A stretch of DNA of 64,000 nt, from the NCBI GenBank assembly GCA_001189155.1, contig LFCP01000004.1, positions 68,782 to 132,781 on the forward strand. Direction: 5' to 3'. The DNA comes from Parcubacteria bacterium C7867-006 (GTDB taxonomy: Bacteria > Patescibacteriota > Minisyncoccia > Phycocordibacterales > DATDWN01). Position 1 is the first letter of the stretch, and each line of letters begins with the position of its first letter. Below the pieces are notes generated by a model. That model searched no databases and was not told where the DNA came from. It saw only the letters and a list, made by a program, of their open reading frames with translations. Of the stretch, positions 1-64,000 are shown piece after piece. The position numbers and the translations under genes were made by a program.

Positions 1-80
1 GCTTCTGGTAGCTCTGATATTATTTTTTTAATTTCTTTATTAAGCACTTTATTTATATTATAATTTTATCGGAGGTAAGT

Positions 81-209
81 GTGAACCTTGCCCAGATCGC
101 AGCAGTGGCCGGCATTATTGTCGTAGCCGTTGGCTCAATCGTTGCGTTCATCTACACCTGCAAGTTCGAGAAGGCTCACCAACACATGGAAAATACTCGG
201 GGAGAATAG
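81..209 (+). CDS. small GC-rich membrane protein (42 aa, GTG start; MNLAQIAAVAGIIVVAVGSIVAFIYTCKFEKAHQHMENTRGE)
   Basis: GGAGGT Shine-Dalgarno 4 nt before GTG at 81; N-terminal TM helix; about 60% GC versus about 33% background; followed by hairpin terminator; not in ORF track (<60 aa). Confidence 0.35.
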   Translation: MNLAQIAAVAGIIVVAVGSIVAFIYTCKFEKAHQHMENTRGE

Positions 210-246
210 GTTGCGACAACCTGGATGTCGCTGGAGGCGCCATGAG

Positions 247-275
247 GGCCGGACTTGTTCCGGCTCTTTTATTTT
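247..275. terminator. rho-independent-type hairpin GCCGGA-cttgt-TCCGGC plus T-run; bidirectional between small ORF and uvrA 3' end
   Basis: perfect 6-bp GC stem, 5-nt loop, tctttt atttt run. Confidence 0.4.
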
Positions 276-2962
276 CTGTAAGCTTTATACTGTTTCAAAG
301 CTTTCTTCAAATATTTTCCTGTGTGACTCTTTTCATTGTTCGCCACCTCCTCTGGTGTGCCTTTTGCAACCAACTGTCCACCACCCGCCCCACCTTCTGG
401 ACCAATGTCCAAAATATAGTCGGCAGATTTTATGATATCCATATTGTGTTCGATAACGACAACTGTATTACCTTTATTTACCAACTTTTGCAAAATCTCA
501 ATCAACTTCTTTACATCTTCATAATGAAGACCGATAGTTGGTTCATCCAAAAGGTAAATTGTTTTCTGTAGATGTGGTCTATACAACTCAGAAGAAACTT
601 TTACTCTCTGAGCCTCTCCCCCAGATAGAGTAGTTGCCGACTGACCAAGCTCAAGATATCCAAGGCCAACATCATCCAAACATTTTAGTCTGTCATATAT
701 AGCTGGAATATCTCCAAAAAACTTCAATGCTTCTTCTACTGTCATTTTTAAAACATCGTGAATATTTTTCTTTTTATATTGAACCTCCAAAGTCTCTTTC
801 ATAAACCTCTTACCCTTACAGACATCACAAGGTACATATACTGTCGGCAAAAAGTGCATTTCAACTTCTATCATTCCATTTCCTTGGCAAGTCTCACATC
901 TTCCACCCTTAACATTGAAAGAAAACCTGTTAGCTTTCCAGCCACGAGCACGAGCCTCAGATGTTTCTGCAAACAAATCACGAATAAATGACCAACTACC
1001 TGTGTATGTCGCTGGGTTTGAACGAGGAGTTCGACCTATCGGGGACTGGTCAATCAAAATTGTTCTACCCAAATATTCTGTACCAGCAAAACTTCCGCAA
1101 TTAAATGTTTCTGCTGTTCTATATTTTCTTTCTAATCTTGCCTGAAGATTTTTATGAAGTATTTCATACACAAAAGAAGACTTACCTGAACCAGAAACTC
1201 CTGTAACAGCAACAAACCGTCCTAACGGAATATCTACGTTCATATTTTTGATATTGAAAACTTTTCCTCCACGTATTTGTATTTCACCTTTTGGATCAGT
1301 TCGTCTTTCTTCTGGAACCTCAATAACTTTATCTCCACGTAAATAATCCAATGTTACTGAACCAGATGTGTTTTTCTTTGCAGTCAACAAATCTTCTAGA
1401 TAGTCGGCTACCACAACATTACCACCATGAACCCCAGCTCCCGGGCCAATATCAACAATATAATCAGAAGCGTAAATAGTATCCTCGTCGTGCTCAACCA
1501 CCACTATAGTATTTCCAAGATTTTTTAAATCAATAAGTGTTTGTATTAGTCTATCATTGTCACGGGAATGTAATCCGATAGTTGGCTCGTCCAAAACATA
1601 AAGCGCCCCAACTAAACCAGAACCAAGCTGGCTAGCTAGACGAATACGTTGTGCCTCTCCTCCAGAAAGAGTGTGTGCTCGTCTGTCCAAAGACAAATAC
1701 TCAATACCAACGTTTAGCATAAACAGTAGTCGTGACTCGATTTCTCGCATTACAACTTTTGATATATTTTTCTCCCGCTCTGTCATTTTCAAACTTTCAA
1801 AAAACTCATATGCATCTTTAATAGACATTGCAGTTAACTCAACAATATTTTTTTTACCAATCAAAACATGCAGAGCTTCTTCTCGGAGTCTAGCACCCTT
1901 ACACTTTGGACAAGGCTCGTTACCAAAAAAGTGTCTTGTACCTAGGCCATTACATTCTGGACACGCACCGTATGGTGAGTTGAACGAAAAAAGTCTTGGC
2001 TCAACTTCTGGATATGAATACCCATCCTTCGGACAAGAAAGTTTTGAAGACATAAAAAATTCTTCAGGAATATAAGTTTTATTTTTTTCCTGACTCATAT
2101 CTCGGAACATTATTTTTACCTGACCGTCTGACTCGTTCAGAGCTTTTTCCAAATCTTCAGACAATCTTTCTTCTGCACTTTTTGTGTCAGTTTTAAAATC
2201 TAAAATAGAAATACTATCTACCAGCACATCTATAGTATGTCGTTTTGTTTTTGAAAGCTCTATTCTGTCACGAAGAGAACTTCGCACGCCATCAACTAGT
2301 ACATGTGAGTAGCCCTTACCAAGCAAATCATAAAGTAACTGATAGTACTCACCCTTTCTACCTTTTACTACGGGAGCAAAAATCTCAACATACATTGGAA
2401 GCTGAATCTTTTTTGAGTTTGCCACAAAATCTTTCTTCTTTGCCTCAACCTTTTCAAGTACAAAGTTTTTTATTTCTTCATTTGAAAGTTTTGTTATTTC
2501 ATCTCCACAAATAAGACAGTGTGGATGACCAACTCGTGAATACAAAATACGTAGATAGTCATATATTTCAGTTATGGTCGCCACTGTTGAACGAGGGTTG
2601 TTTGAACGAGACTTTTGATCAATAGAAATAGCTGGAGAAAGACCGACAATCTCATCAACATCTGGTTTCTGCATCTGTCTTAGGAACTGTCTAGCGTAGG
2701 ACGAAAGAGATTCAACGTATCTACGTTGACCTTCGGCAAAAATAGTATCGAATGCAAGCGATGACTTCCCTGAACCAGAGAGACCGGTAAAAACCACCAT
2801 CTTATTTCGTGGCATTTCTACAGTGATATTTTTAAGATTATGAGTTCTGGCTCCCTTTACTATAATCTTATCTTCGTTATTTTTATTGTCTTTTTTAACC
2901 ATATACGTAAACACAACCCCCGTTCGCTCTATAGGGTTGTTATATAAAAAGGATATTACCAC
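269..2962 (-). CDS. uvrA: excinuclease ABC subunit A UvrA (likely true start at 2902, MVKKDNK...)
   Basis: two ABC ATPase modules, [14 protein letters not shown] Walker A, zinc-finger CxxC motifs; N-terminal 20-aa extension of the ORF atypical. Confidence 0.95.
2914..2926. promoter_or_regulatory. possible LexA/Cheo-like SOS box CGAAC-N4-GTTG 12 nt upstream of the uvrA start at 2902
   Basis: CAACCCCCGTTCG resembles CGAAC-N4-GTTCG (one arm mismatch); lies inside a longer ACAACCC...GGGTTGT inverted repeat. Confidence 0.15.
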
Positions 2963-2995
2963 AGAAACAAATCAGCGACAAACAACAACGTAGAA

Positions 2996-3028
2996 GCCGG
3001 CGAGTCCTCCCAATGAAGACACGCCGGC
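2996..3028 (-). terminator. GC hairpin GCCGGCG-loop(agtcctCCCAATGAAGACA)-CGCCGGC, copy 1 of a duplicated hairpin, 9 nt after stop of small ORF 3037..3210
   Basis: 7-bp perfect stem; loop core cccaatgRagaca shared with copy at 3294..3321. Confidence 0.4.
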
Positions 3029-3036
3029 TCAACAAA

Positions 3037-3210
3037 CTATGCCCCAACAAGGGCCCTAGAACGTCCTCGAAGGCGAGGTCGAAGGTGAGAGAAAGCCTCT
3101 CTGCCGAGGCCGGGCCTCACCTCATCGAGGAGAGAGCCGGCAACACCAACGCACGCGAGGATGCAAGCGACGAGAACGGAACCTTTGACAAGCACTTCTT
3201 GGAAGTCCAT
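3037..3210 (-). CDS. small GC-rich hydrophobic protein (57 aa; MDFQEVLVKGSVLVACILACVGVAGSLLDEVRPGLGREAFSHLRPRLRGRSRALVGA)
   Basis: ATG with weak AAGGG SD; N-terminal TM-like segment; C-terminal PRLRG shared with ORF 3330..3530; followed by hairpin copy 1; upstream TTTGACG -35-like box. Confidence 0.3.
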   Translation of the reverse strand: MDFQEVLVKGSVLVACILACVGVAGSLLDEVRPGLGREAFSHLRPRLRGRSRALVGA

Positions 3211-3293
3211 GCACGGCCCTTTCGTCTAACTACCCAAAGATAATTATGTATTTTATTTATAAAAACGTCAAACAATCTTTATATAAACGAACA

Positions 3294-3321
3294 CCGGCGG
3301 CCCCCAATGGAGACACGCCGG
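3294..3321 (-). terminator. GC hairpin CCGGCG-loop(gcCCCAATGGAGACA)-CGCCGG, copy 2, 9 nt after stop of ORF 3330..3530, followed by T-rich tract
   Basis: 6-bp stem; loop motif shared with copy 1. Confidence 0.4.
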
Positions 3322-3329
3322 CAGTATAT

Positions 3330-3530
3330 CTATGTCCGAATCGCACCGCGAAGTCGAGGTGTATGCATATGGCACCTGATCCACACCCAGAAGGTAGAGA
3401 TAGAGCAATATGCGAAACACACAACAACGGCACAAAGAACATAGAAGACGATGAGGCAGATCACTCCGATGACAGTAGCTACCACTGTGGCAGCTATCAC
3501 CAAGAAAATGAGCAAGGCCTCCACGTACAT
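3330..3530 (-). CDS. small GC-rich transmembrane protein (66 aa; MYVEALLIFLVIAATVVATVIGVICLIVFYVLCAVVVCFAYCSISTFWVWIRCHMHTPRLRGAIRT)
   Basis: ATG overlaps stop of upstream ORF (TGATG coupling) with GGAG 3 nt upstream; about 35-residue hydrophobic stretch; terminator hairpin downstream. Confidence 0.35.
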   Translation of the reverse strand: MYVEALLIFLVIAATVVATVIGVICLIVFYVLCAVVVCFAYCSISTFWVWIRCHMHTPRLRGAIRT

Positions 3531-3739
3531 CAGCTCCAGTACGGAGAGTGGTCGAGCTTCGGAACCGTCCGTGGTCGAGCTTCCTCGTACCATCGTTCGG
3601 TGTGCCGGAGCACGACTTCCTTGGAAAGCGATGGCGAGTTCCACACCTCGGAGAAAGAACGCCGAGGTGCTTCGCTAACGATCACCACTCCATGAACGAC
3701 TGAAACCAGCCCGAAAAGCGCCTTAACGAGAGTTCCCAT
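3530..3739 (-). CDS. small GC-rich protein (69 aa; MGTLVKALFGLVSVVHGVVIVSEAPRRSF...) first gene of a 2-gene mini-operon
   Basis: strong SD GGGGAGGaagcggATG; N-terminal hydrophobic segment; TTGACA -35-like box at 3794..3799 just after uvrB stop. Confidence 0.4.
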   Translation of the reverse strand: MGTLVKALFGLVSVVHGVVIVSEAPRRSFSEVWNSPSLSKEVVLRHTERWYEEARPRTVPKLDHSPYWS

Positions 3740-3802
3740 CCGCTTCCTCCCCAAAGAGTGTCCTCTCTTTATTGTGTAATATTTATGATTTACTGTCAAT
3801 TA

Positions 3803-5908
3803 CTATCTCAGCAAGTCTTTGTTTCTAGGATTTACAATTTTTTTAGGTTTTTGTGACTCGAGAATTTTTTGTAGCTCAAGTATTTCATCTCTTAATATAG
3901 CGGCAGTTTCAAAATCTAATATTTTTACTGCACCATCCATTTGTTTTTCTTTCTGTCGTATTAGTTTAGCCGGATCTTTTTCTAACATTTTTTTATCAAC
4001 TTCCAACAAAGCAGAAACTGTTTTTTGATGTTCGTTTCGAAGCTGGTCAGTAATATCTTGAATTTTTTTGATAATTGTTTTTGGAGTTATGCCATGTTTT
4101 TTATTGTACTCCATCTGTAGTGTTCTACGTCTAGCAGTTTCATCTATAGCGTACTTCATAGATTTTGTAACTGTATCTGCATAAAGAATCACACGACCAT
4201 CTATGTTTCTAGCTGCACGACCAATAATCTGTATGAGTGAAGTCTCACTTCGGAGAAAACCTTCTTTATCTGCATCCAAAATTCCAATCAGTTTAACTTC
4301 TGGCAAATCCAAACCTTCTCGCAATAGATTTACACCAACAAGAACATCAAAAGTACCCCTTCGAAGATTTGTTAATATTTCAATTCTTTCTATTGTTTTG
4401 ATATCGCTATGAAGATACTCTGCCTTGATTCCCTTTTCTTTCAAATATTCACTCAGATCCTCTGCCATTTTTTTAGTTAGAGTTGTTGCGATTACCCTAC
4501 CACCATCTTTTATAGACTTCTCAGCCTCCTTTATAAAATCTTTCACCTGACCAGGATAACTCCCCTTTTCAACAATAGGTTTTACGTCTACAACTGGATC
4601 AATCAATCCTGTTGGTCGTATAACTTGTTCAACAACTTGTTCTGAATGTTCTTTTTCGTATGTACTAGGTGTAGCTGATGTGTAAATAACCTGTCCAACC
4701 CTCTCCTCAAACTCGTTGAACTTTAGAGGTCTATTGTCTTTTGCACTTGGAAGTCTGAAACCGAAATCAACTAGACTCTGTTTTCTGGAAGCATCTCCAC
4801 CGTACATCGCGCCGATTTGAGGAACTGACACATGAGACTCATCTATAACAGTCAAAAAATCTGGTGAGCCATCTTTATTGTGCGGAAAGTATGCAAGTAA
4901 TGTATCAGGAGCCTCTCCAGGTTTTTTACCAGAAAAATGTCGCGAGTAATTTTCTATTCCATTGCAATACCCCATCTCACGGATAAGTGCTAGATCATAT
5001 GTTGTGCGTCTTTTTAATCTCTCCGCTTCAAGATTTTTTCCTTCTTTCTCTAACTCCTTTAAACGTTTAGCCAATTCTGCCTTAATTGATTTAAATGCTC
5101 TCTCATTCTGCTCGTTAGTTGAAATAAAATGTTTTGCTGGAAAAAGGAAAAAAGCATCTACTTCTTTTATTATTCCACGAGTTATAGCATCAATAACTAA
5201 AATTTGTTTTATTTTACTTTCATCTATTTCAATTCGATAAATAACTTTTTCTGAAATGGGCATTATCTCTAACATATTACCTATAGCTCTGAACATTCCC
5301 GGTTTTAAGTCTGCAGTAGTTCTTTCAAAATGCACATCAATCAAGTTTCGAATAAAATCTGCTCTAGAAATTTTTTCTCCCTTACTGATTTTTACATTTA
5401 CTTTTTCATACTCAACAGGAGAACCTAAACCATAGATACAGGAAACTGACGCGACAATGATTACATCTTTTCTAGTTAAAAGAGCTTGTGTTGAAGCATG
5501 GCGAAGTCTATCTATCTCCTCATTTATCATTGCCTCTTTCTCTATGTATGTATCAGAAACTGGCATATAGGCTTCTGGCTGATAATAGTCATAATAAGAA
5601 ACAAAGTAATGCACGGCATTGTTTGGAAAAAATTCTCTATATTCCTGAGCTAGTTGTGCTGCGAGAGTTTTATTGTGAGCTATAACCAAAGTCGGCTTTT
5701 GAACCTCCTGTATAACGTTTGCAATAGTGTAAGTTTTTCCAGAACCAGTCACACCCAAAAGAGTCTGATGTTTCAGACCCTTTTTTACACCGTCGACCAA
5801 ACCCTTTATAGCTTTTGGTTGATCCCCAGCTGGAGGATATTCTCTTTTAATCTCAAATTTCATTTTCACACTATACAATAAATTTAGATATAGAAAAAGG
5901 CGACACAT
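3803..5908 (-). CDS. uvrB: excinuclease ABC subunit B UvrB (likely true start 5863, MKFEIKREYPPAGDQP)
   Basis: GVTGSGKT Walker A, helicase motifs, UvrB/UvrC interaction C-terminus; ORF-track N-terminal extension runs into a terminator hairpin loop. Confidence 0.95.
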   Translation of the reverse strand: MCRLFLYLNLLYSVKMKFEIKREYPPAGDQPKAIKGLVDGVKKGLKHQTLLGVTGSGKTYTIANVIQEVQKPTLVIAHNKTLAAQLAQEYREFFPNNAVHYFVSYYDYYQPEAYMPVSDTYIEKEAMINEEIDRLRHASTQALLTRKDVIIVASVSCIYGLGSPVEYEKVNVKISKGEKISRADFIRNLIDVHFERTTADLKPGMFRAIGNMLEIMPISEKVIYRIEIDESKIKQILVIDAITRGIIKEVDAFFLFPAKHFISTNEQNERAFKSIKAELAKRLKELEKEGKNLEAERLKRRTTYDLALIREMGYCNGIENYSRHFSGKKPGEAPDTLLAYFPHNKDGSPDFLTVIDESHVSVPQIGAMYGGDASRKQSLVDFGFRLPSAKDNRPLKFNEFEERVGQVIYTSATPSTYEKEHSEQVVEQVIRPTGLIDPVVDVKPIVEKGSYPGQVKDFIKEAEKSIKDGGRVIATTLTKKMAEDLSEYLKEKGIKAEYLHSDIKTIERIEILTNLRRGTFDVLVGVNLLREGLDLPEVKLIGILDADKEGFLRSETSLIQIIGRAARNIDGRVILYADTVTKSMKYAIDETARRRTLQMEYNKKHGITPKTIIKKIQDITDQLRNEHQKTVSALLEVDKKMLEKDPAKLIRQKEKQMDGAVKILDFETAAILRDEILELQKILESQKPKKIVNPRNKDLLR

Positions 5909-5916
5909 TGTCGCCT
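5898..5916 (-). terminator. perfect 8-bp hairpin AGGCGACA-cat-TGTCGCCT flanked by A5/T5 runs (bidirectional)
   Basis: seen directly; sits between GC-rich island 5920..6310 and uvrB start. Confidence 0.5.
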
Positions 5917-5919
5917 GGT

Positions 5920-6310
5920 GGTGGAACTACGGTTGGACTAGAAGACCCAACATATGGAGATCGTCGGGGGAAGAGTCCGACGACAGACCCATGGCAAGGC
6001 CTGGAGCGCGCTCCAAGGTTAGGTGGGGGTGGTTGCCCAAGACACCCAGTCCAACCGTGTTCCATTAGCAACACTACTACTTATTAAAAATTTGTCAAAT
6101 TGCTTTATATTAAATATAAAAAACGGCGATCCAAATGGACCAGCCGTGTGACGAGTGCGGTGGACAGTTGTCCACATAAAGAGCGTATTACAGTCTGCCG
6201 AAGCAAACTACACAGGTGGGTAGAATATCCTTCCCACGGTTATAGAGGCTTTATTCATCCTCTACCCAGACCGGGGTTATTACCTAAGTACATCACCCAC
6301 CTGAACTAAT
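5920..6310. ncRNA. candidate structured RNA(s) in GC-rich island, class unassigned
   Basis: about 55% GC island in AT-rich intergenic; long-range 11-bp helix 5929..5939/6048..6058, palindrome GGAGCGCGCTCC 6003..6014, 9-bp helix 6213..6221/6295..6303; only Pro/Arg-rich junk ORFs; no tRNA T-loop or RNase P P4 motifs found. Confidence 0.25.
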
Positions 6311-6336
6311 TGTAGCTCTATAAAAAAGAAAGTCAA

Positions 6337-7596
<1,260 letters not shown>

Positions 7597-7601
7597 TTAT
7601 A

Positions 7602-8096
7602 TTAATTCTCTACTTTCAATAGTTCGACCTCAAAAATAAGTGTAGATCCCCCTGGTATAGGTCCATAATCCTGATATCCATAACCGTACTCTGGTGGAAC
7701 AGAAAGAAGTCTCTTTCCTCCAACTCGCATGCCAACTATTCCCTCATCCCATCCTTTTATTACCTGACCAGAACCAAGTACGAACTGGAATGGTTCACCA
7801 CGAGAAACTGAACTATCAAAAACTCTTCCATCAACAAAACGTCCTGTATAGTGAACAACAACTCTACTACCCACACTTGCAATCTCTCCTGAACCAAACT
7901 CTTCATCCTGAACTAAAAGTTGTGATTGTCCTTGCGCCATATTTATTGGGTTTATTGAATCATTATTACTAAAAATAGAAACTAGTGTCTGACCGAAAAC
8001 AAAGAAAAATCCTACTATAAAGACAGCCACAGTAACAGCTATCCATTCTTTTTGACTTAATTTTTTCATAAGACTAATTATATTACGCCTAAACAC
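7602..8096 (-). CDS. FKBP-type peptidyl-prolyl cis-trans isomerase with N-terminal membrane anchor
   Basis: VVVHYTGRFVDGRVFDSS...GWDEGIVGMRVGGKR...FEVELLKV FKBP signature. Confidence 0.8.
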   Translation of the reverse strand: MFRRNIISLMKKLSQKEWIAVTVAVFIVGFFFVFGQTLVSIFSNNDSINPINMAQGQSQLLVQDEEFGSGEIASVGSRVVVHYTGRFVDGRVFDSSVSRGEPFQFVLGSGQVIKGWDEGIVGMRVGGKRLLSVPPEYGYGYQDYGPIPGGSTLIFEVELLKVEN

Positions 8097-8121
8097 TAAT
8101 GTAAATTAGGAAAACTAGGCT

Positions 8122-8877
8122 ATGGCGTATATAATGCCCAATATGTCAAAATCAAAGAAAACTCCTATTGAGAAAAAGGATGTTTATCCAATGAGAATAA
8201 ACAAATACCTAGCACACAAAGGACTGGCTACCCGCACAGGAGTAGATGAACTAATAAAAAGCAAAAAAATCCTTATAAATGGAGTTCTGGCTAAACTTGG
8301 AGACAAAGTTTCTGAAACTGATAAAGTTGAAGTTAGAGGTGTTCACAATAAAAAATATATTTATTTGGCTTACAACAAACCGGTTGGAATAGTTAGTACA
8401 AATCCTCAAGGTGACGAGAAAAGTATTATGGAGAACATAAAAATAAAAGAAAAAGTCTTCCCTGTTGGCCGACTAGACAAAGAATCTCATGGACTTATTA
8501 TTTTAACCAATGACGGCAGAGTAACAGATAGACTTCTAAATCCAGATAAAGATCATGAGAAAGAATATATCGTTAAAGTTGATAGAGCCTACACACCAGG
8601 GTTTATTAGAAATATGGAAAATGGAGTTGATATTGGAGATGGTATAACAAAAAAAGCAAAACTTAAAAAAATCAAAGAAAACATTTTTAGTATCACTTTA
8701 ACAGAAGGTAAAAATCGCCAGATTAGAAGAATGACTGAAAAACTTGGATACACTGTTCGAGATTTACAAAGAGTTCGTATACAAAATATTGAACTTGGTA
8801 AAACTCCAGTCAATAGTTATAGAGAAATAAATGGTGAGGAAAAGACAGAATTTTTAAAAAGTATAGGTTTAGAATAA
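8122..8877 (+). CDS. RNA pseudouridine synthase (RsuA/RluB family, S4 domain)
   Basis: S4 RNA-binding N-terminus, PVGRLDKESHGLIILTNDG catalytic Asp motif. Confidence 0.8.
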   Translation: MAYIMPNMSKSKKTPIEKKDVYPMRINKYLAHKGLATRTGVDELIKSKKILINGVLAKLGDKVSETDKVEVRGVHNKKYIYLAYNKPVGIVSTNPQGDEKSIMENIKIKEKVFPVGRLDKESHGLIILTNDGRVTDRLLNPDKDHEKEYIVKVDRAYTPGFIRNMENGVDIGDGITKKAKLKKIKENIFSITLTEGKNRQIRRMTEKLGYTVRDLQRVRIQNIELGKTPVNSYREINGEEKTEFLKSIGLE

Positions 8878-8917
8878 GAACTTGCGATTAAAGCTTTAGC
8901 CAAGTAAAATAAAGACT

Positions 8918-9542
8918 ATGAGTCCAAAAGAAATAATAAATACCCCGCCGAAACAATCGCCGGTTGAAATACTTACAAGACAAGAACTACACGACACAGC
9001 AGTTGAAAGAGTGCACCTTATCGCAAAAGAATTCACAAATGCTTTTAGTTTCCTGAGAAAATACCCTAAATCAGTAACGGCATTTGGCGGAAGTCATTTT
9101 AAAGAAACTGATCCAGAATACATTAAAGCAAGAAGTATCAGCTCTAGAATAGCCCAGGAATTACAATACTCAGTTGTTACAGGAGGAGGTCCAGGAATAA
9201 TGGAGGCTGTAAATAGAGGTGCTTTTGAAGTTGGAGGTCAGTCTCTAGGACTAACTATTGAACTTTCTAAACATCAAATAAAAAATAACTACCTAACAGA
9301 TAATCCAAACTAAAAAAATAGAGAGAGTTCCAATAATTCTAGTAGGTAGTGATTTCTGGAACCCGATTCATGAACTAATGAAAAAAGAACTACTAGGTCG
9401 AGGCACTATTGATGCTGATGATTTGGAACTATACAAAATACTAGACGATGAAGACGAAATAATAAACGTTATCAAAAACGCCCCAATTAGAAACGGAATA
9501 AAGTTTGACCACAAAGATGGTGAGGTTGTTTCAGATATGTAA
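8918..9542 (+). pseudogene. LOG-family (TIGR00730, cytokinin riboside 5'-monophosphate phosphoribohydrolase-like) gene, disrupted
   Basis: frame 1 ends at 9313 after motif 1 VTGGGPGIMEAV; C-terminal PIILVGSDFW...ELL segment continues in another frame from 9321; about 45 aa including the PGGxGTxEE motif are missing. Confidence 0.55.
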
Positions 9543-9555
9543 TATAACTTTTTAG

Positions 9556-9765
9556 TTATATTGTCTTTTTTATCTCCTTAAACTCGTTTTCGATTTCTGA
9601 AAGTCTTTCTTTTGAAGACTTTATTAGCTGTGCACCTTCTTTTACGTATTCTAGACCTTTCTCAACATCCAATTCAGATTGAGATTCAAACCAAGAAACT
9701 ATTTCAGATAGTTTTTTTAATGAATCTTTTAGATTTGTATCTCCTGTTTGTTTTTTTGTTGTCAT
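9556..9765 (-). CDS. xseB: exodeoxyribonuclease VII small subunit
   Basis: 69-aa helical protein, XseB family signature LSEIVSWFE...LE..L..YKEG, overlaps xseA by 4 nt. Confidence 0.8.
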   Translation of the reverse strand: MTTKKQTGDTNLKDSLKKLSEIVSWFESQSELDVEKGLEYVKEGAQLIKSSKERLSEIENEFKEIKKTI

Positions 9766-10925: not shown

Positions 10926-10927
10926 AA

Positions 10928-11533: not shown

Positions 11534-11645
11534 GGGAGCTATTGTAACATAATTTTATGTAAAGAAATCAACACAAAGAGAAACTCCACACGAATGTAGG
11601 ACGTGGGAGTCCCTCATTTACGTGTGGAGTATGGCCAGCCGAGAG

Positions 11646-11786: not shown

Positions 11787-11825
11787 CAGCACCCTCCTAG
11801 TATTAATGTTATCTAGTTAGAAAAT

Positions 11826-14264: not shown

Positions 14265-14276
14265 AGTACTTAAACT

Positions 14277-59223: not shown

Positions 59224-59552
59224 AATATTTTATTGCTAACTAATAAGAGAGAAGGGCTTTTAAAGAAAAAGCCACTTCTTATAACTCTGCAGTAAACAAA
59301 GTTATCCGAATGAGTGACATTTTAGGTAGACTATCTAGGTTTGTATTCAAATTATAGAACGATAGGGGCCAAAAAGTCGATATGACTTATCCACAGATAT
59401 TTAATCATGTCAAGAGTGTAAAGAATGTAAATCGCTTCGCAGGGATTGAGTGATGTGATAGGGTGGAAAAATAGCACCCAAAAGTGCTATGATAAGAGCA
59501 CAATTTAATAAGTATAAGTAGCCTAAACCTAGTTTTCACTAGGCATGGTGAA

Positions 59553-59690
59553 AAGTCCTATCAAGCATAAAGAACCCATCATGGGGTCGCTTGATAGGCC
59601 ATATCGGGAAACCGGTATGAGAGACTTCGGTCTCTACCCGTGGTGGGCTTTTTGTGTATCTGCCACGGCATTAGCAAGTCCTATCAAGCA
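59553..59690 (+). promoter_or_regulatory. structured leader: 15-nt direct repeat AAGTCCTATCAAGCA (59553 and 59676) plus inverted partner GCTTGATAGG (59589) and hairpin GAGAGAC-ttcg-GTCTCT followed by T5
   Basis: seen directly; second repeat covers the RBS of the HNH gene; middle arm can pair with either flanking copy. Confidence 0.3.
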
Positions 59691-59693
59691 AAA

Positions 59694-60128
59694 ATGATAA
59701 ATTTTGAACATCCCGAAGATCGGGAGTATTTTGCTAATTTATTAGCAAATGGAGATGTAAAAAAATTAGACAGAGATTTTTCTGAGCTTTTTGATTTTGA
59801 ACATCTTGCAATGAAAAGATGGAGATTTAATAAGATTAGGAAAAAGATTTTAAAAGAACTTATTGAGAAATACGGCAATGAGTGTCAGTTAAAAATCCAT
59901 CCTGATTGTAGTAAGGTGCAAAAATTTGAACCTGATCACATTATTCCGCTAGCTTCAAATGAGTTAAATAAAAAATTAAGAAAAATGGCTCGTTTTTCCA
60001 GTGAGAAAGTTGAGCAACAGAGTTTCGGATCAAATAATATGAAAAACCTCACTTTGGCATGTAAAAGATGTAATGCTTTCAAAAAACATCGTATGTTTTT
60101 GTCAATAAATTTTGGTCTTCAAAAATGA
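59694..60128 (+). CDS. HNH endonuclease
   Basis: C..C...EPDHIIP...N...C..CN HNH fold motifs; start taken at ATG 59694 downstream of the repeat-bearing leader. Confidence 0.7.
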   Translation: MINFEHPEDREYFANLLANGDVKKLDRDFSELFDFEHLAMKRWRFNKIRKKILKELIEKYGNECQLKIHPDCSKVQKFEPDHIIPLASNELNKKLRKMARFSSEKVEQQSFGSNNMKNLTLACKRCNAFKKHRMFLSINFGLQK

Positions 60129-60147: not shown

Positions 60148-61596
60148 ATGGCAATTATGTTTGAACAAGCTTTTAAGAATATAGATAAGATCCTCCGTAA
60201 CGATAATGCGGGTGGCGCGATGGATTATATAGAACAGACTTCCTGGATAATTTTTTTGAAGTATCTAGATGATCTAGAGACTGAACGTGAAAAGTCAGCG
60301 AAACTTTCTGGTAAAAAATACTCTTATATTCTTGATGGAGAATACAGATGGAGTTCTTGGGCATGCCCAATGAGCAAAGATAGAAAAATTGACTATAACA
60401 AAGCCCTTACAGGTGATGATCTCAATACTTTTGTTGACCAGAAACTCTTTCCGTATTTAAAGAAATTCAAATCAGAAAATTCAGATACTATTGAGTATAA
60501 AATTGGAGAGATTTTTAGTGAACTCAAAAATAAAATAAAAAGTGGATATGCTCTGCGTGACATTCTTAATATCGTGAATGGTCTACATTTCCAATCAAGC
60601 GAGGAAAAACATGAACTTTCTCACTTGTATGAGAGTAAAATTGCTGAAATGGGAAATGCTGGTCGTGACGGTGGACAATATTACACTCCTCGTCCACTTA
60701 TTCGAACTATTGTAAAAATGGTAAATCCAAAAATTGGAGAAACAATATACGATGGAGCATGCGGATCAGCAGGGTTTCTTATAGAAGCCTTTGACTATCT
60801 TACAGAAAACAAACAAAAACTTTCTCTCAAGGAGTACCAGACACTTCAGGAAAAAACTTTTTATGGAAAAGAAAAAATTACTTTGCCGTATATTATTGGT
60901 GTAATGAACATGATCTTGCATGGCATAGATGCTCCAAATATTATTCACACAAATACTCTCTCTGAGAATCTTACTGATATTCAAGAAAAAGATCGTTTTG
61001 ATGTCATTCTCGCCAACCCTCCCTTTGGAGGAGGTGAAAGAAAAGAGGTTCAACAAAACTTTCCGATAAAGAGTGGTGAAACTGCATATTTATTCTTGCA
61101 ACATTTTATAAAAAAACTTAAAGCAGGTGGTCGAGCTGGTATTGTAATTAAAAACACATTTCTTTCTAACGGCGATGCCTCAAATTTACGAAAAGAGTTT
61201 TTAAATAGTTGTGATGTTCACACAATTCTAGATTTACCATCTGGAGTATTCCAAGCTGGAGTAAAAACAGTAGTTTTATTTTTTGAGAAAGGTAAGACAA
61301 CAAAGAAAATATGGTATTACCAACTTAATCTTGGTCGAAATTTAGGTAAGGGCAATCCTTTAAGTGAGTTAGACCTGGCGGAATTTGTGAAATTACAGAA
61401 GACAAAAGCAGATAGCGAAAACTCATGGAGTATTAATGTCTCTGATATTGATAAAGAAAGTTTTGATTTATCTGTAAAAAATCCGAGTAAGAAAGATGGT
61501 GGTGTCTTGCGTGAACCAAAAGAAATTATTGATGAAATGCAAAAACTTGATACAGAAATTAAAAGTAGTGTGATGGGTATTCAAAAACTATTATGA
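60148..61596 (+). CDS. hsdM: Type I restriction-modification N6-adenine DNA methyltransferase subunit
   Basis: NPPFGG motif IV, HsdM N-terminal domain, GSAGFL motif I. Confidence 0.9.
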   Translation: MAIMFEQAFKNIDKILRNDNAGGAMDYIEQTSWIIFLKYLDDLETEREKSAKLSGKKYSYILDGEYRWSSWACPMSKDRKIDYNKALTGDDLNTFVDQKLFPYLKKFKSENSDTIEYKIGEIFSELKNKIKSGYALRDILNIVNGLHFQSSEEKHELSHLYESKIAEMGNAGRDGGQYYTPRPLIRTIVKMVNPKIGETIYDGACGSAGFLIEAFDYLTENKQKLSLKEYQTLQEKTFYGKEKITLPYIIGVMNMILHGIDAPNIIHTNTLSENLTDIQEKDRFDVILANPPFGGGERKEVQQNFPIKSGETAYLFLQHFIKKLKAGGRAGIVIKNTFLSNGDASNLRKEFLNSCDVHTILDLPSGVFQAGVKTVVLFFEKGKTTKKIWYYQLNLGRNLGKGNPLSELDLAEFVKLQKTKADSENSWSINVSDIDKESFDLSVKNPSKKDGGVLREPKEIIDEMQKLDTEIKSSVMGIQKLL

Positions 61597-62342
61597 AAAA
61601 ATTTGAGTATAATAAAGAAAATCTCAGATTAATTGCTTTTATTATCGCAAGTGCTTCATCAGGCACACTTTTTACAAAACTTTTACAAGATTCTGGTTGG
61701 AATGTTGTAAGTACAGCATCAGAAGAGTATAGAAAATCTGGTAAATCTAAAGAAGATTATCTTTTTGATCAATTTAATAAGATTGCCGAGGAGGGTAGGA
61801 TAGATGTACTAGAATTTATAATAGATAAGACTCTTTCAAAAAGTAGTGTTTATTTTAAAAAAGGTGATAAAGATTATAAATTTCCTAGAGATTCTTTTGG
61901 TGAACTAAAAAAGAAAGTTGGTAAAAAGGAGAAAAGTGATAAAAAGAAAAATAGCAAATTATTCGATGACAGAAAGTTACATGGATCGGTTGGTTTTGCC
62001 AGCAAAGACCTTTTCGTTTCAGAATTTTATTCACAGTCTATTTTTGAAGCATGTAAACTTTTGAATAAGAGAGTGCAAGAGCTGTCAAAATCTACAAAAG
62101 ATGGAAAGTCATTAATGCTAGATGTTTTTAGTGTAAATAATCCTATTTTAAAAATAAGTGATAATCAATCTCAGTCAGATAAAGATGAGCAAGAAGGATT
62201 TATGCACTTATTTGCAGGTGTTATGCACGGAATTCGGAATCCTAAAGGGCATGAGTTAATAAATCTAATAGATCCACTTAGAACACTAGAGTACCTCAGC
62301 TTTATTAGTCTTCTTTTTAGGAAACTAGATGAATTAAAGTAA
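61593..62342 (+). CDS. Ymh-family (TIGR02391-like) protein with HEPN-type Rx4H motif, inserted between hsdM and hsdS
   Basis: ATGA overlap with hsdM; C-terminal HGIRNPKGHE; positional hallmark between M and S subunits. Confidence 0.5.
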   Translation: MKKFEYNKENLRLIAFIIASASSGTLFTKLLQDSGWNVVSTASEEYRKSGKSKEDYLFDQFNKIAEEGRIDVLEFIIDKTLSKSSVYFKKGDKDYKFPRDSFGELKKKVGKKEKSDKKKNSKLFDDRKLHGSVGFASKDLFVSEFYSQSIFEACKLLNKRVQELSKSTKDGKSLMLDVFSVNNPILKISDNQSQSDKDEQEGFMHLFAGVMHGIRNPKGHELINLIDPLRTLEYLSFISLLFRKLDELK

Positions 62343-62343
62343 T

Positions 62344-64000
62344 ATGAAAACTAGCTGGCAAATAAAAGAACTTGGAGAAATAATTAAATTAGAATATGGA
62401 AAACCACTTCCAGATTCTAAGAGACATCCTGACGGTAAGTATCCTGTATATGGTGCTAATGGGGAAAAAAATAGGACTAACGAATTTTTTTATAATAAAC
62501 CAAGCATAATCGTTGGTCGCAAGGGTTCTGCCGGAGAACTGAATCTAACTGAAGAAAAATTCTGGCCTCTTGATGTAACTTATTTCGTTACTTTTGATTC
62601 CACTAAATATGATTTAGGTTTTATTTATAATCTTCTTAATACATTAGAGCTTACAAAACTAGCAAAGGGTGTAAAGCCGGGAATAAATAGAAATGATGTT
62701 TATTCTATTAAAGTAGATACTCCACCAATCTCTGAGCAAAAGCGAATTGTGAAAAAATTAGATGAGGTTTTTGAGAAAGTAACAAAGGCAAAGGAGGCCG
62801 CAGAAAAAAACCTACAAAATTCGAAAAAGCTCTTTGAGTCCTATTTGAATGGTATCTTTGTGAATCCGAGTAAAGACTGGGATGAAAGATTTCTAGGAGA
62901 AGTATTACAGAAGACAGAAACTGTTGATCCAACAAAAAAACCTAAAGAAAAGTTTGTATATATTGATGTTTCAAGTGTAGATAAGGAAACAAAAGAGATA
63001 GTGAACACATCTTTACTTATAGGAAAAGACGCACCTAGTCGAGCAAGAAAACTAGTTAAAACTAATGATGTTATTTTTGCTACTGTTAGACCAACACATG
63101 CTAGAGTGGCCATAATAACAGAGAAATATAACAACCAAGTTTGTAGCACCGGATATTTTATTTTGAGGACAAATGACCTGATGAATAATAAGTTAGTATT
63201 TTATTTCCTACTCACTTCTAGTTTTAATAGACAGATGGAAAAATTACAAAAGGGCGCAAGTTATCCTGCTGTTACAGATAGTGAAGTAAAAAATATAAAG
63301 ATTTTATTTCCGAAGTCTCTTGCTGAGCAAAAAAAGATTATAGATAAACTTGATGTGCTTTCAATTGAAACAAATAAGTTAGAGAAAATATATAAAAAGA
63401 AACTCGCTTGTTTGGAAGAACTTAAAAAGTCTATTTTAAAACAAGCTTTTGAGGGGAAACTAGTTGTTCAAGAACAAACAAGTTCTCTTCCTGTCCCATC
63501 ACCATATATTCGTAATCAAGTTCATGCTGCGATTGTTGGACAAGTATCAAAAGATGGTGGAGAGACTACAGAAGTTGCTGTCGCTAAATATGACCATTTA
63601 CTACAAGAAATTTTTGGCATATCACTAGGTTATCAATTTCAAACGCATCTATTTGGGCCATTTGATGTAGAAATAAAAAAATTAGTTTCTTCTGGTCTTA
63701 GCCCTAGAAATAGATGGTTTGTAAAAAGAAACGGTATGATTGTCGCTGGTAGTAATATTACTGCATTACTTTCACGTTCAAGTAACTTATATAGAAATGC
63801 ACAGACAGCTATGATTGAACTGGCGAGATTGGGAATAACAAAGATGAATACTGACAAAGTTGAGTTATTATCGACTGTCTGTCATGCAATAAAAGAATGC
63901 AGATCTACTGATTTAAAAATTATTAGAAATTTTATGGATCAATGGCAAACAAACAATAATCAAACAAAGGCTCAAAAATTTTCTTTAGAACAGACTAAAA
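62344..64000 (+). CDS. hsdS: Type I R-M specificity subunit HsdS with two TRDs and an additional C-terminal extension; 3' partial (runs off window)
   Basis: TRD1, central conserved region, TRD2, distal conserved LKKSILKQAFEGKL, then more than 170 further residues; no stop before 64000. Confidence 0.8.
   Translation, partial: MKTSWQIKELGEIIKLEYGKPLPDSKRHPDGKYPVYGANGEKNRTNEFFYNKPSIIVGRKGSAGELNLTEEKFWPLDVTYFVTFDSTKYDLGFIYNLLNTLELTKLAKGVKPGINRNDVYSIKVDTPPISEQKRIVKKLDEVFEKVTKAKEAAEKNLQNSKKLFESYLNGIFVNPSKDWDERFLGEVLQKTETVDPTKKPKEKFVYIDVSSVDKETKEIVNTSLLIGKDAPSRARKLVKTNDVIFATVRPTHARVAIITEKYNNQVCSTGYFILRTNDLMNNKLVFYFLLTSSFNRQMEKLQKGASYPAVTDSEVKNIKILFPKSLAEQKKIIDKLDVLSIETNKLEKIYKKKLACLEELKKSILKQAFEGKLVVQEQTSSLPVPSPYIRNQVHAAIVGQVSKDGGETTEVAVAKYDHLLQEIFGISLGYQFQTHLFGPFDVEIKKLVSSGLSPRNRWFVKRNGMIVAGSNITALLSRSSNLYRNAQTAMIELARLGITKMNTDKVELLSTVCHAIKECRSTDLKIIRNFMDQWQTNNNQTKAQKFSLEQTK

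Follow-up and report, generated by a model that had tools for sequence, protein, structure and literature searches.

GC-rich, Shine-Dalgarno-led gene modules between housekeeping genes of an AT-rich Parcubacterium

GC-rich islands and their transcription units

We examined a 64,000-nucleotide stretch of DNA (‘the window’) from Parcubacteria bacterium C7867-006, a metagenome-assembled genome (35.7% GC) of an ultra-small bacterium of the CPR. GC content in 100-nt windows averages 0.357 (sd 0.077), and a calling threshold of at least 0.50 GC delineated islands at positions 61–440, 2961–3770 (0.526 GC), 5891–6240 (0.49), 11571–11810 (0.525), 13221–14280 (0.551), 26851–27570 (0.583), 34031–34340 (0.513) and 50681–51010 (0.47). 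Six islands are protein-coding (51–58% GC) and comprise seven transcription units, since island I2 holds an I2a/I2b pair and a separate I2c unit; one more contains two unclassified structured RNAs (RNA1 and RNA2). A preliminary description of the window had placed such islands at coordinates that agree with ours, at 55–60% GC against a 33% background; sliding-window GC and GC3 (third-position GC) calculations confirm the islands and the contrast, with the figures revised to about 51–58% against 36%. The predicted features are as follows.

57–275, plus strand: module I1 (−10 element TATAAT at about 57–62, SD GGAGG, ORF 81–209, terminator hairpin 244–268)
2995–3271, minus strand: module I2c (promoter 3271–3243, TTGACG-17-CATAAT; ORF 3210–3037; hairpin 3041–3009)
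3290–3799, minus strand: module I2ab (promoter 3799–3771, SD GGGAGG, ORFs I2a and I2b, hairpin 3322–3292)
3739–3530, minus strand: I2a ORF (69 aa)
3530–3330, minus strand: I2b ORF (66 aa, two hydrophobic helices)
5895–6085, minus strand: RNA1 (long closed multibranch hairpin, then intrinsic terminator 5916–5898)
6118–6336, minus strand: RNA2 (promoter 6336–6309, TTGACT-16-TACAAT; terminator 6142–6127)
11575–11833, minus strand: module I3 (promoter 11833–11806, SD AGGAGGG, ORF 11786–11646, terminator hairpin 11630–11583)
13189–14268, plus strand: module I4 (promoter 13189–13217, TTGACA-17-TAGAAT; SD AGGAG; ORF 13297–14184; terminator 14236–14260)
26865–27575, minus strand: module I5 (5′ UTR, SD AAGGAG, ORF 27516–26920, terminator 26905–26874)
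34020–34350, plus strand: module I6 (SD GAGGAGG, ORF 34047–34310, hairpin and T-run at about 34312–34350)
50720–50785, plus strand: GC-rich element (structured RNA unsupported)
50848–50921, plus strand: tRNA-Gln(UUG)

The sharp breaks in codon usage proposed earlier are borne out. GC3 is 0.56–0.79 in island genes (in the correct frames, 0.64 for I4, 0.64 for I6 and 0.79 for I5) versus 0.16–0.37 in native ORFs, with a median of 0.25 for long native ORFs. Codon choice is inverted between island and native genes (ATC 72% versus 12%, TTC 83% versus 20%, AAG 79% versus 21%), and third-position C stands at 0.38 versus 0.10.

Anti-SD pairing of the eight island ORFs ranges from −5.6 to −13.3 kcal/mol, six of them at or below −7.4, compared with a median of +0.3 for 58 native ORFs scored at the annotated first start, about 2% of which reach −6. 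This comparison agrees with the claim that island genes carry strong SD sites with none comparable at tgt or uvrB. SD sites are also present on GC-rich ORFs in L018, L090, L005, L007, L019 and L049 (L numbers denote related loci and assemblies). The native genes are SD-less and look largely leaderless. The best-scoring sigma-70-like sites lie directly upstream of I4, I2a, I2c, I3 and RNA2, and the same scoring gave no strong consensus match for I5 or I6. Terminator-like hairpins lie 3′ of I1, I2b (3309–3292), I4, I5 (26891–26874), RNA1 and RNA2, and hairpins are visible by eye at I3, I2c and I6; the GC-rich terminator formerly ascribed to each module is thus matched by a terminator-like or visible hairpin after I1, I2b, I2c and I3–I6. 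T-runs follow the module hairpins, as expected of terminators. Island transcripts form a class apart from native genes, GC-rich and SD-led, and the evidence supports the view that the islands are sharply bounded, putative separately expressed units, unlike native genes both compositionally and translationally.

Module products and structured RNAs

Most modules are protein-coding, with products predicted to be mostly membrane-anchored or secreted. The proteins of I1–I6 gave zero family matches in Pfam, NCBIfam, PHROGs and PADLOC, consistent with the earlier statement that they belong to no recognisable family, and they are mutually unrelated rather than one protein family. Conserved protein relatives exist for I1, I2a, I3, I4 and I5; I6 is an orphan. 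Hydrophobic helices, one or two each, occur in I1, I2a, I2b, I2c and I3. The TM helix or signal peptide attributed to most products is found across I1–I5 but not in I6, which has neither.

I1 encodes a 42-aa, one-helix membrane peptide (hydrophobic segment at residues 1–29; SD pairing −10.9 kcal/mol). Its slot in L018 contains an orthologous 54-aa peptide with the same ...RGE* ending, and the terminator core is identical there at 21 of 21 nt. The start of I2b overlaps the stop of I2a (TGATG); I2a has one 69-aa relative at 81% identity and one of 71 aa at 47%, and in L018 the I2ab promoter, SD and terminator are conserved although the coding body has diverged. The 57-aa, one-helix product of I2c is not present in the L018 slot. 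Its hairpin (3041–3009) repeats the I2 hairpin, whose 20-nt core, GCCGGCGTGTCTYCATTGGG, occurs in two exact copies in the window versus 0 expected. I3 encodes 46 aa, with a hydrophilic N-terminus and, at the C-terminus, a helix flanked by Trp; its orthologues, ORFs of 50 aa, occupy this slot in L018 and L090/L091 (GC 0.58, GC3 0.67), and the orthologous slots share conserved promoter, SD and terminator. I6 (87 aa, no signal peptide or hydrophobic segment) is putatively coding on the basis of its ORF, SD (pairing −13.3 kcal/mol) and GC3 of 0.64 only; a database search returned no relative except I6 itself. As an orphan without comparative support, it counts against the explanation favored below.

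I4 has an 80-nt 5′ UTR and a 295-aa ORF, whose product comprises a signal peptide, an outer domain (∼100 aa, conserved, with the motif RYKxDCGNRL), a single TM helix, a stretch rich in Pro and Ala, and ∼35 conserved residues at the C-terminus. It has 12 protein relatives and occupies the same slot in L089, L090 and L091; dN/dS is 0.25–0.30 (0.12–0.24 for the N-domain). Across genomes I4 is 49–58% identical, compared with 83–93% for the DEAD, DoxX and VTT proteins on its flanks, and the three genomes branch in one order whether judged by I4, DoxX or VTT identity, in keeping with vertical descent. With relatives reaching as low as ∼30% identity, GC3 of the I4 family exceeds that of its neighbors at 10 of the 11 related loci that were examined, and an SD is present at every I4-family locus examined. 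One contig of 50% GC aside, we found no I4 relative native to a high-GC genome. In L018 the I4 slot keeps its promoter but encodes a secreted protein of 275 aa that is unrelated to I4.

I5 encodes a 198-aa protein with a signal peptide and an all-beta domain, for which the AF2 model (pLDDT 88.7) has no close solved fold that we could find. It has 48 relatives and a dN/dS of 0.06–0.075, and syntenic I5 GC islands are present in L005, L006, L007 and L008. In the contigs examined (L001–L004), relatives at no more than 69% identity lie in uniformly 59–64% GC, non-CPR-looking contigs, and the composition of the gene equals that of its surroundings. The GC of the window I5 (0.61) matches those donor-type genes (0.56–0.61) despite a flank dS of ∼1. 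In L005 and L007, I5 shows net GC decay (16:3 and 17:6), indicating that some amelioration is under way.

RNA1 folds strongly (MFE −81 kcal/mol, z −5.3) and matches nothing in Rfam, even at E≤5; its slot in L018 holds a non-alignable RNA that is equally structured (z −7.9). The predicted RNA2 transcript (∼170 nt, longest ORF at most 12 codons) folds weakly (z −2.1), and an Rfam search gave no match. Two structured RNAs had been proposed in the preliminary description: that reading holds for 5895–6292 (RNA1/RNA2) and fails for 50700–50790, whose fold is no stronger than that of shuffles (z −1.3), the GC of the 50681–51010 island coming mostly from tRNA-Gln. Klein, Misulovin and Eddy (2002) reportedly used GC-rich islands in AT-rich genomes to screen for structured RNAs. 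RNA1 and RNA2 resemble such islands in being GC-rich, with promoter and terminator and no credible ORF, and in the strong fold of RNA1; neither matches any family in Rfam, and conservation of their sequence is lost even in the closest relative. Unlike those islands, the other six here are protein-coding.

Inheritance and GC content of the modules

Every island is bordered by native sequence on both flanks within one contig (flanking genes: uvrA, uvrB, tgt, a DEAD helicase), and the same native/island junctions occur in the independent assemblies L008 (99–100% identity), L005, L006, L007, L018, L089, L090 and L091; assemblies of C7867-006 and related organisms from NCBI, IMG, Logan and ENA show them again. 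That independent assemblies of related Parcubacteria have GC islands in matching intergenic slots indicates that the islands are not an assembly artefact. I1–I5 occupy the same slots in related Parcubacteria and are still GC-rich, at a flank dS of about 0.8–2.0 (saturated), contrary to the earlier reading of the breaks as recent acquisition. In blastn comparison with L018, no island body aligns, and the flanks align at 75–83%; promoters, SDs and terminators are kept across relatives although the coding bodies diverged. In a clade of related Parcubacteria the modules have been passed down at constant intergenic positions, and the island proteins evolve several times faster than their neighbors. 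Presence varies among relatives: the window has no insert in a slot used for a kinase, and 22 kb of L009 contain no islands. Relatives also carry similar GC-rich single-gene inserts that encode cytoplasmic nucleotide kinases; these look like ordinary gap-filling gene transfer, an observation that counts against the explanation favored below.

The dS values of I5 (1.1–1.4) and I4 (1.4–1.8) are close to those of neighbors (0.8–2.0), yet GC3 stays at 0.64–0.79. Synonymous substitutions were polarised by three-taxon majority-rule parsimony, with 85–134 sites per gene. AT-to-GC changes per site number 32/141 in islands (I4 and I5) and 152/1599 in native genes, a 2.4-fold difference (p=1e-5), of which an estimated ∼7 of the 32 events could be parallel GC-to-AT hits passing as AT-to-GC. 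GC-to-AT changes number 62/516 and 78/495, respectively (p=0.1), and the implied equilibrium GC3 is 0.65 for islands versus 0.38 for native genes (observed native, 0.2–0.3); I4 and I5 lie close to this equilibrium of their own. Statistically, the GC-richness of the islands goes beyond an undecayed scar of transfer.

Scored against dinucleotide shuffles, the mRNAs of I2ab (z −4.8), I3 (z −5.3) and I4 (segments at z −6.2 and −4.4) are strongly folded. All 11 of the other I4-family mRNA segments score −2.2 to −6.0, compared with +1.1 to −2.9 for native pieces, and a three-genome I4 consensus fold reaches z −6.6. Over 12 sequences the consensus energy is only −3.9 kcal/mol, with no family-wide conserved I4 mRNA structure. 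The I4 antisense strands are also strongly negative (z −5.1 and −3.7), so that the signal is partly a strand-symmetric property of the sequence. For the I1, I5, I6 and I2c mRNAs, folding does not exceed that of shuffles (z −0.4 to −1.7), and structure therefore cannot be the general cause.

The explanation we favor, with about even confidence, is that the islands are envelope-gene modules of long vertical descent that evolve fast and whose GC-rich transcripts are under active maintenance. They would be single-gene (once two-gene) accessory expression modules lodged between housekeeping genes of the Parcubacterium, each running from a promoter through a strongly SD-bearing 5′ UTR and the ORF to an intrinsic terminator. 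For I5, the relatives show entry by horizontal transfer from high-GC bacteria, and other modules may have come the same way; the earlier proposal of a high-GC donor is upheld for I5 only and not for I4, which is GC-richer than its host in 10 of 11 loci. As to the cause of maintenance, we infer selection on the transcript as the most likely mechanism: a stably folded GC-rich mRNA might be long-lived or slowly translated, and its start region could be occluded, so that an SD would be needed for ribosome recruitment. Occlusion of this kind would tie GC-richness and SD dependence together. Such an arrangement would suit envelope or host-interface proteins made independently of neighboring operons. 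The alternative raised earlier, an insulated set of small envelope proteins, fits this anatomy better than acquisition does, except that the proteins are unrelated to one another.

Plain horizontal transfer with slow and incomplete amelioration, in which high-GC donor genes were acquired shortly before the clade diversified and their GC content, codon usage and SDs are leftovers under no special pressure, strikes us as rather unlikely, though deserving of weight. I5 is its best case, with compositionally native relatives in high-GC contigs and net decay in L005 and L007, and the variable presence, the kinase inserts and the reported commonness of individually transferred genes in Patescibacteria (PMC12455944) point the same way. 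It does not readily account for the 2.4-fold island AT-to-GC rate, the donor-type GC of the window I5 at a flank dS of ∼1, or the elevated GC of the I4 family in many deeply diverged AT-rich genomes without a high-GC native homologue (the 50% GC contig excepted); moreover, AT-rich promoters adjoin GC-rich synonymous sites, though decay should be alike in both. We judge it improbable that the islands are recombination hot spots, at which surface-protein alleles are swapped between strains via flanking homology and biased mismatch repair raises GC locally (GC-biased gene conversion). Island bodies much more diverged than their flanks, the replaced I4 gene in L018 and the GC-ward synonymous bias would all suit such a process, but an effect of GC3 +0.35 to +0.55 is, to our knowledge, far larger than any on record for such conversion in bacteria, the island edges coincide with predicted transcript ends rather than arbitrary conversion tracts, and the shared branching order of I4, DoxX and VTT fits vertical descent.

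Mobile cassettes of moron- or integron-like type, shuttled from slot to slot or genome to genome by a site-specific recombinase or a phage, the hairpins being the recombination sites, are a decidedly improbable alternative: the promoter/gene/terminator layout between conserved genes, the deviant composition, the two copies of the I2 hairpin and the replaced L018 cargo recall them, but there were zero PHROG matches, I4 and I5 relatives are absent from viral contigs, neither integrase nor direct repeats were found at islands, the flanking genes (uvrA, uvrB, tgt, DEAD helicase) are not prophage genes, the hairpins have T-runs like terminators, and the modules keep the same slot across genomes. 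That the islands are structured non-coding RNAs with ORFs as chance products of GC-rich sequence is very improbable, despite GC-rich islands in AT-rich genomes reportedly being a signature of such RNAs (RNA1 and RNA2 among them) and despite I4, I3 and I2ab folding far better than shuffles. For I1 to I5, dN/dS (0.06 for I5, 0.25–0.30 for I4) and conserved ORFs already contradict it: I1, I3 and I2a keep ORF length and architecture while their nucleotides diverge. I5 has a confident AF2 fold, a 295-codon ORF would arise by chance at ∼1e-5 at this composition, and an Rfam search of the islands gave no matches. A chimera of assembly or binning, with GC-rich reads of another organism spliced into an AT-rich contig, is conceivable for any metagenome-assembled genome and scarcely credible here, given native flanks on both sides in one contig and junctions that recur in NCBI, IMG, Logan and ENA assemblies.

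Likeness to known systems

The modules share with transferred genes and genomic islands (including those of PMC12455944) a sharp break in GC and codon usage, patchy presence and accessory functions, and, for I5, compositionally matched homologues in high-GC bacteria. Unlike these, they are old and syntenic across the clade, with synonymous turnover that has not converged on host composition; the I4 family has raised GC in essentially all AT-rich genomes that carry it; and the modules lack mobility genes, tRNA flanks and direct repeats, being bounded by predicted transcript ends.

A module also resembles a phage moron in being an autonomous promoter/gene/terminator unit, of different base composition and frequently with a membrane or secreted product, set between two genes that are conserved neighbors elsewhere. 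Morons, according to what Hendrix and colleagues are said to have described, are genes with their own promoter and terminator among conserved prophage genes, often of deviant composition; the modules, by contrast, lie amid chromosomal housekeeping genes and have no phage homology. I1, I2b, I2c and I3 (42–66 aa, one or two helices) are similar to type I toxin-antitoxin peptides and membrane small proteins, with putative promoters of their own, strong SDs, structured mRNAs and terminators. They differ in having no identified antisense RNA or repeat copy and in being single-copy, syntenic and GC-deviant; I4 and I5 are larger, predicted exported proteins.

Composition and layout of the GC-rich modules

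The window derives from a metagenome-assembled genome of the Candidate Phyla Radiation (CPR) and has a GC content of 35.7%; its encoded proteins include KND47651, KND47660 and KND47662, and the standard bacterial code leaves its long ORFs open. A sliding-window calculation (100 nt; mean 0.357, sd 0.077) recovered, nearly to the base, the GC-rich islands that the preliminary description had delimited by reading the sequence.

GC-rich islands in the window (positions, with GC content for the protein-coding islands where calculated)
61-440
2961-3770 (0.526)
5891-6240
11571-11810 (0.525)
13221-14280 (0.551)
26851-27570 (0.583)
34031-34340 (0.513)
50681-51010

The protein-coding islands have GC contents of 0.51-0.58, against 0.357 for the window, and the third-codon-position GC (GC3) of their ORFs is 0.56-0.79, against 0.16-0.37 for the AT-rich ordinary ('native') genes. 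When read in their proper frames, I4, I6 and I5 have GC3 values of 0.64, 0.64 and 0.79, respectively. Codon preference is inverted between island and native genes (ATC, 72% versus 12%; TTC, 83% versus 20%; AAG, 79% versus 21%; TTA, 0% versus 26%).

The six protein-coding islands comprise seven transcription units with eight ORFs, and a further pair of RNA-like units lies between the tgt and uvrB genes.

Units of the GC-rich islands (coordinates, strand, description)
81-209, plus strand: I1, 42-aa ORF with hydrophobic helix
3739-3530, minus strand: I2a, 69-aa ORF with hydrophobic helix
3530-3330, minus strand: I2b, 66-aa ORF with hydrophobic helix; start overlaps the I2a stop
3210-3037, minus strand: I2c, 57-aa ORF with hydrophobic helix
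5895-6292, minus strand: RNA1 and RNA2, two promoter-to-terminator units without credible ORFs
11786-11646, minus strand: I3, 46-aa ORF with hydrophobic helix
13297-14184, plus strand: I4, 295-aa ORF with signal peptide and one transmembrane helix
27516-26920, minus strand: I5, 198-aa ORF with signal peptide
34047-34310, plus strand: I6, 87-aa ORF with neither hydrophobic helix nor signal peptide

The best matches to a sigma-70-like promoter in the first 15 kb are found directly upstream of I4, I2a, I2c, I3 and RNA2. Terminator-like hairpins follow I1, I2b, I4, I5, RNA1 and RNA2, and hairpins are visible in the sequence for the remaining units. The GC-rich stretch of each island extends from just past the -10 box to the terminator, and the islands therefore correspond to transcript bodies.

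A hairpin core, GCCGGCGTGTCTYCATTGGG, is present twice in the window (3009-3028 and 3303-3322, minus strand; no copies expected), in one copy each behind I2b and I2c, and as a single copy in L018, the closest relative. Its occurrence in two copies, only at I2, suggests that the I2c unit may be the product of a local duplication of the I2 3' end. A repeat search of the window identified no repeat family linking the islands, the hairpin core being confined to I2, and no similarity was found among the proteins encoded by islands of the window and of related genomes. The possibility that the islands encode one protein family was rejected on the basis of this mutual dissimilarity.

Coding status, translation initiation and transcript folding

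The eight island ORFs had no match in Pfam, NCBIfam, PHROGs or PADLOC, in agreement with the preliminary description, which recognised no family for them. The ORFs of I1 to I5 are nonetheless conserved in relatives, which excludes a purely non-coding reading of those islands; a lack of such conservation, with RNA structure conserved instead, had been named there as pointing to non-coding RNA. I5 has 48 relatives and a dN/dS of 0.06-0.075; its AlphaFold model (pLDDT 88.7) is all-beta, and a search for solved structures close to that model found none. I4 is represented by 12 protein relatives and nine metagenomic loci, with a dN/dS of 0.25-0.30 (0.12-0.24 for its N-terminal domain), and members of its family share a signal peptide, a conserved outer domain (RYKxDCGNRL), a transmembrane helix, a Pro/Ala-rich linker and a conserved C-terminus. 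Across genomes whose neighbouring proteins are 83-93% identical, I4 is 49-58% identical; it evolves approximately five times faster than its neighbours. Relatives of I2a were found at 81% and 47% identity, and I6 is an orphan that retrieved only itself in a database search. With lengths of 42-66 aa and one hydrophobic helix or two, the predicted products of I1, I2b, I2c and I3 would be of the size and hydrophobicity of small toxins.

A Shine-Dalgarno sequence (SD) precedes all eight island ORFs, with anti-SD duplex energies of -5.6 to -13.3 kcal/mol. For native ORFs at their first start the median pairing energy is +0.3 kcal/mol, and about 2% of 58 reach -6, so that the contrast in SD strength first noted by eye is also evident in the duplex energies. 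SDs are likewise found on GC-rich ORFs of related loci, including two (L019 and L049) labelled Magasanikbacteria and Kerfeldbacteria. Many native starts are preceded, at a distance of 6-10 nt, by a TAnAAT-like (-10-like) box, as at 11533, 33560, 39669 and 50617. This spacing is at most suggestive of leaderless native mRNAs, such boxes being frequent by chance in AT-rich DNA.

Folding of the mRNAs was scored against dinucleotide shuffles. The two halves of I4 (z = -6.2 and -4.4), I3 (-5.3) and I2ab (-4.8) fold more stably than their shuffles; I1, I5, I6 and I2c give values of -0.4 to -1.7, and native pieces +1.1 to -2.9. Since several island mRNAs are no better folded than shuffled sequence, structure cannot explain all of the islands. 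Other I4-family mRNA segments all showed excess folding (11 of 11 tested, z = -2.2 to -6.0), and no such excess was seen in I5 orthologues or in the unrelated gene that L018 carries at the I4 position. A consensus fold of three I4 genomes scored z = -6.6. A structure common to the whole I4 family was rejected, however: the RNAalifold consensus of 12 sequences is essentially unstructured (-3.9 kcal/mol), which leaves a specific dual-function I4 RNA unsupported. Low scores were obtained for the antisense strands of I4 as well. In some modules there may be selection for folding as such, and a particular conserved RNA architecture is only hypothetical.

Two islands had been proposed to be structured RNA, and this was supported for one of them. 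At 5895-6292 RNA1 is strongly folded (z = -5.3) and RNA2 weakly so (z = -2.1). The second, at 50700-50790, was rejected: its element at 50720-50785 scores z = -1.3 and the GC content there derives mainly from tRNA-Gln, the sole tRNA in the window (50848). In L018 the RNA1/RNA2 position holds a non-alignable and even more strongly folded RNA (9785-9975, plus strand; z = -7.9). An additional AT-rich, pilin-like ORF is found at the same position of that genome (~9125-9745). Rfam gave no match in the islands, under gathering thresholds for the window and eight related loci and, for the islands themselves, in E-value mode; its matches elsewhere were limited to tRNA, a c-di-GMP-II riboswitch and LOOT.

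Persistence, origin and base composition in relatives

We recovered relatives through a UvrB-based scan of species-representative genomes. The closest, L018 (UvrB 90% identical; 40.6% GC), is collinear with positions 1-16000 of the window. Its native genes align to the window at 75-83% nucleotide identity, whereas none of the island bodies align; despite this, GC-rich islands occupy the matching intergenic slots. Hand alignments indicated that promoters, SDs and terminator hairpins are kept between the two genomes, while the coding bodies have diverged. The counterpart of I1 in L018 is a 54-aa ORF with the same RGE* end and a terminator core identical over 21 nt, and that of I3, also present in L090/L091, is a 50-aa ORF. 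At its I4 slot L018 encodes an unrelated secreted protein of 275 aa (413-1315, minus strand, in a locus with a short stretch of N; GC 0.56, GC3 0.76) behind the conserved promoter, with a signal peptide resembling that of I4, which looks like replacement of the cargo at a fixed expression slot.

In four further relatives (L005, L006, L007 and L008, from independent NCBI and Logan assemblies), I5 is flanked by the same two native genes and has 56% GC against a background of ~40%. In L089, L090 and L091, I4 is flanked by the genes for the DEAD helicase and DoxX (56-60% GC against ~41%), and the I1-I5 slots are filled in several relatives; one relative, L009, has no islands in 22 kb. The recurrence of the same arrangement of native and island DNA in independent assemblies of relatives excludes chimeric assembly for I1-I5. 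GC-rich single-gene inserts of relatives also encode nucleotide kinases: a cytidylate-kinase-like gene in L089 (1850-2605) and L090 (604-1311), and an adenylate kinase gene (PF00406) in L018 (16869-17534). The kinase-insert slot of the window, at 8096-8122 between genes for an FKBP-type protein and a pseudouridine synthase, is empty.

The synonymous divergence of I5 (dS 1.1-1.4) and I4 (1.4-1.8) is the same as that of flanking native genes (0.8-2.0), indicating that the synonymous sites of the islands have turned over. A recent date for the acquisition that the sharp compositional breaks had suggested is not borne out by islands that are kept in the same slots at saturated synonymous divergence. 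The related proposal of a high-GC donor is supported for I5 and not for I4. Relatives of I5 at 42-69% identity (one of them annotated Acidobacteria) reside, in the contigs examined (L001-L004), in DNA that is uniformly 59-64% GC with non-CPR gene content, and the GC content of the I5 homologue matches its surroundings. Because these relatives are compositionally native where they occur, a transfer of I5 to the ancestor of this small Parcubacteria clade, with a high-GC bacterium as the donor, is well supported by the sequence comparison. No high-GC donor was found among the relatives of I4. Instead, the gene is itself GC-elevated in AT-rich genomes: at 10 of 11 related loci its GC3 lies above the median of the adjacent genes (0.70/0.30, 0.65/0.30, 0.46/0.23, 0.40/0.30, 0.50/0.25, 0.54/0.41, 0.81/0.55, 0.74/0.45 and 0.54/0.33, together with L094, where gene GC is 0.58 versus 0.37). 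The lone flat locus is in a contig of 50% GC (0.63/0.62). For donor tracing, I1-I3 are too short and I6 is an orphan. A phage origin was rejected, as the islands had no PHROG match and IMG/VR scans found no relatives of I4 or I5 in viral contigs.

Plain slow amelioration of transferred genes is a possible explanation of these compositions, and the partial decay of I5 in L005 and L007 (GC3 down to 0.72-0.74, only there) is in its favor. To evaluate it, we assigned a direction to synonymous changes at third positions by majority rule within sets of three genomes, for I4 and I5 and for native genes of the same genomes. Per site-branch, AT-to-GC changes number 32/141 in the islands (of which three-taxon parsimony is estimated to have misread ~7 from parallel GC-to-AT changes, per-gene counts being small) and 152/1599 in native genes, which gives the islands a 2.4-fold higher rate (Fisher p=1e-5); GC-to-AT changes number 62/516 and 78/495. 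The implied equilibrium GC3 is 0.65 for the islands versus 0.38 for native genes, where amelioration alone would take both to the same value. Present GC3 is close to the value inferred for the ancestor (I4, 0.73 in the ancestor versus 0.68-0.74; I5 in the window, 0.82 versus 0.81). From the synonymous-change counts and the family-wide I4 pattern, we read these data as reflecting a gene-specific, GC-ward pressure on the islands, together with a degree of ordinary amelioration in I5. Such a pressure could also, with lower probability, stem from GC-biased gene conversion at surface-protein loci that recombine, and cassette mobility is a possible but improbable route by which the units would be distributed; with respect to the latter, no flanking direct repeats were found at the islands and no integrase is present near them.

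Interpretation, known systems and other features of the window

The best-supported reading is that the islands are accessory expression modules for fast-evolving envelope or secreted proteins, old and inherited vertically, at least some of them foreign in origin, with GC-rich, SD-dependent transcripts that are kept from the AT-rich norm by gene-specific pressure. We favor selection on the transcript as what would hold the GC-richness: a stably folded mRNA would not leave its start region open, and an SD would then be needed. Such selection would link the anomalies in GC content and SD usage, and it fits the coincidence of island edges with transcript ends. A far stronger version, which we consider very improbable, is that GC-rich, SD-led and partly folded transcripts form a distinct, selectively maintained expression class in otherwise SD-less, leaderless, AT-rich CPR bacteria and, most radically, that their codon usage, SDs and signal peptides are kept in line with a high-GC partner organism, since it is in or on this host, and not within the translation regime of the symbiont itself, that the messages or genes would act.

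Among known kinds of element, the nearest are phage morons and horizontally acquired genes of atypical composition. The islands resemble the latter, including genomic islands, in their break in composition and codon usage, but differ from them in their equilibrium composition and in lacking signatures of mobility. With morons they share a promoter and a terminator of their own around an inserted gene of deviant composition; they differ in having housekeeping flanks and neither PHROG matches nor IMG/VR relatives, their neighbors being uvrA, uvrB, tgt, DEAD helicase, DoxX and surface-protein genes. Integron gene cassettes are promoterless ORFs with an attC site, arrayed beside an integrase and attI, whereas the island units are singly scattered and have their own promoter-like sites and hairpins that, like terminators, are followed by T-runs. 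The small hydrophobic peptide genes I1, I2b, I2c and I3 are reminiscent of the small toxins of type I toxin-antitoxin systems, and no toxin family was matched by the island ORFs in PADLOC or Pfam. For Patescibacteria there are general reports of horizontal transfer and of genomic islands (PMC12455944). Full-text searching of the literature brought up no account of GC-rich, SD-led modules that persist; a paper on 'hypervariation' in Gracilibacteria concerns a repeat locus unrelated to the islands.

Compositional islands are usually taken as a sign of recent gene transfer. Here the signature outlasts saturated synonymous divergence and goes together with another way of starting translation; it marks those envelope and secreted proteins that evolve fastest in an uncultured bacterium of the episymbiont type. 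If its maintenance is real, GC content combined with an SD would offer a simple handle on candidate host-interface genes in unannotated CPR genomes, and the modules would be a natural case of a few genes with synonymous composition far from mutational equilibrium, in which mRNA-level selection or biased gene conversion in bacteria could be tested with existing metagenomic reads. If it is not, the islands are a set of old single-gene transfers, and ordinary.

Several additional features were observed in the window.

Other features (coordinates, strand where assigned, description)
18880-18905 and 18907-18932: arms of a perfect 26-nt palindrome with TATAAT-like boxes, between ORFs 18326-18877 and 18937-19803
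20876-23779, minus strand: gene for a 967-aa surface protein with Big_9, cadherin-like and PG-binding domains
21680-23100: ~570-nt periodic repeats in that gene, corresponding to its Ig-like domains
23820-23903, minus strand: c-di-GMP-II riboswitch (63 bits, above the gathering score)
47919-48096 and 49430-49607: diverged direct repeat (178 nt, 75% identity), spanning neighboring paralogous ORFs 47923-48477 and 49434-49958
59520-59635, plus strand: LOOT RNA, full-length match (88 bits; gathering score 46)

The position of the riboswitch directly upstream of the surface-protein gene suggests that an adhesin may be under c-di-GMP control in a Parcubacterium. The LOOT RNA lies just upstream of ORF 59640-60128 and a cluster with the appearance of a restriction-modification system, and accounts for a small rise in GC content at 59541-59690.
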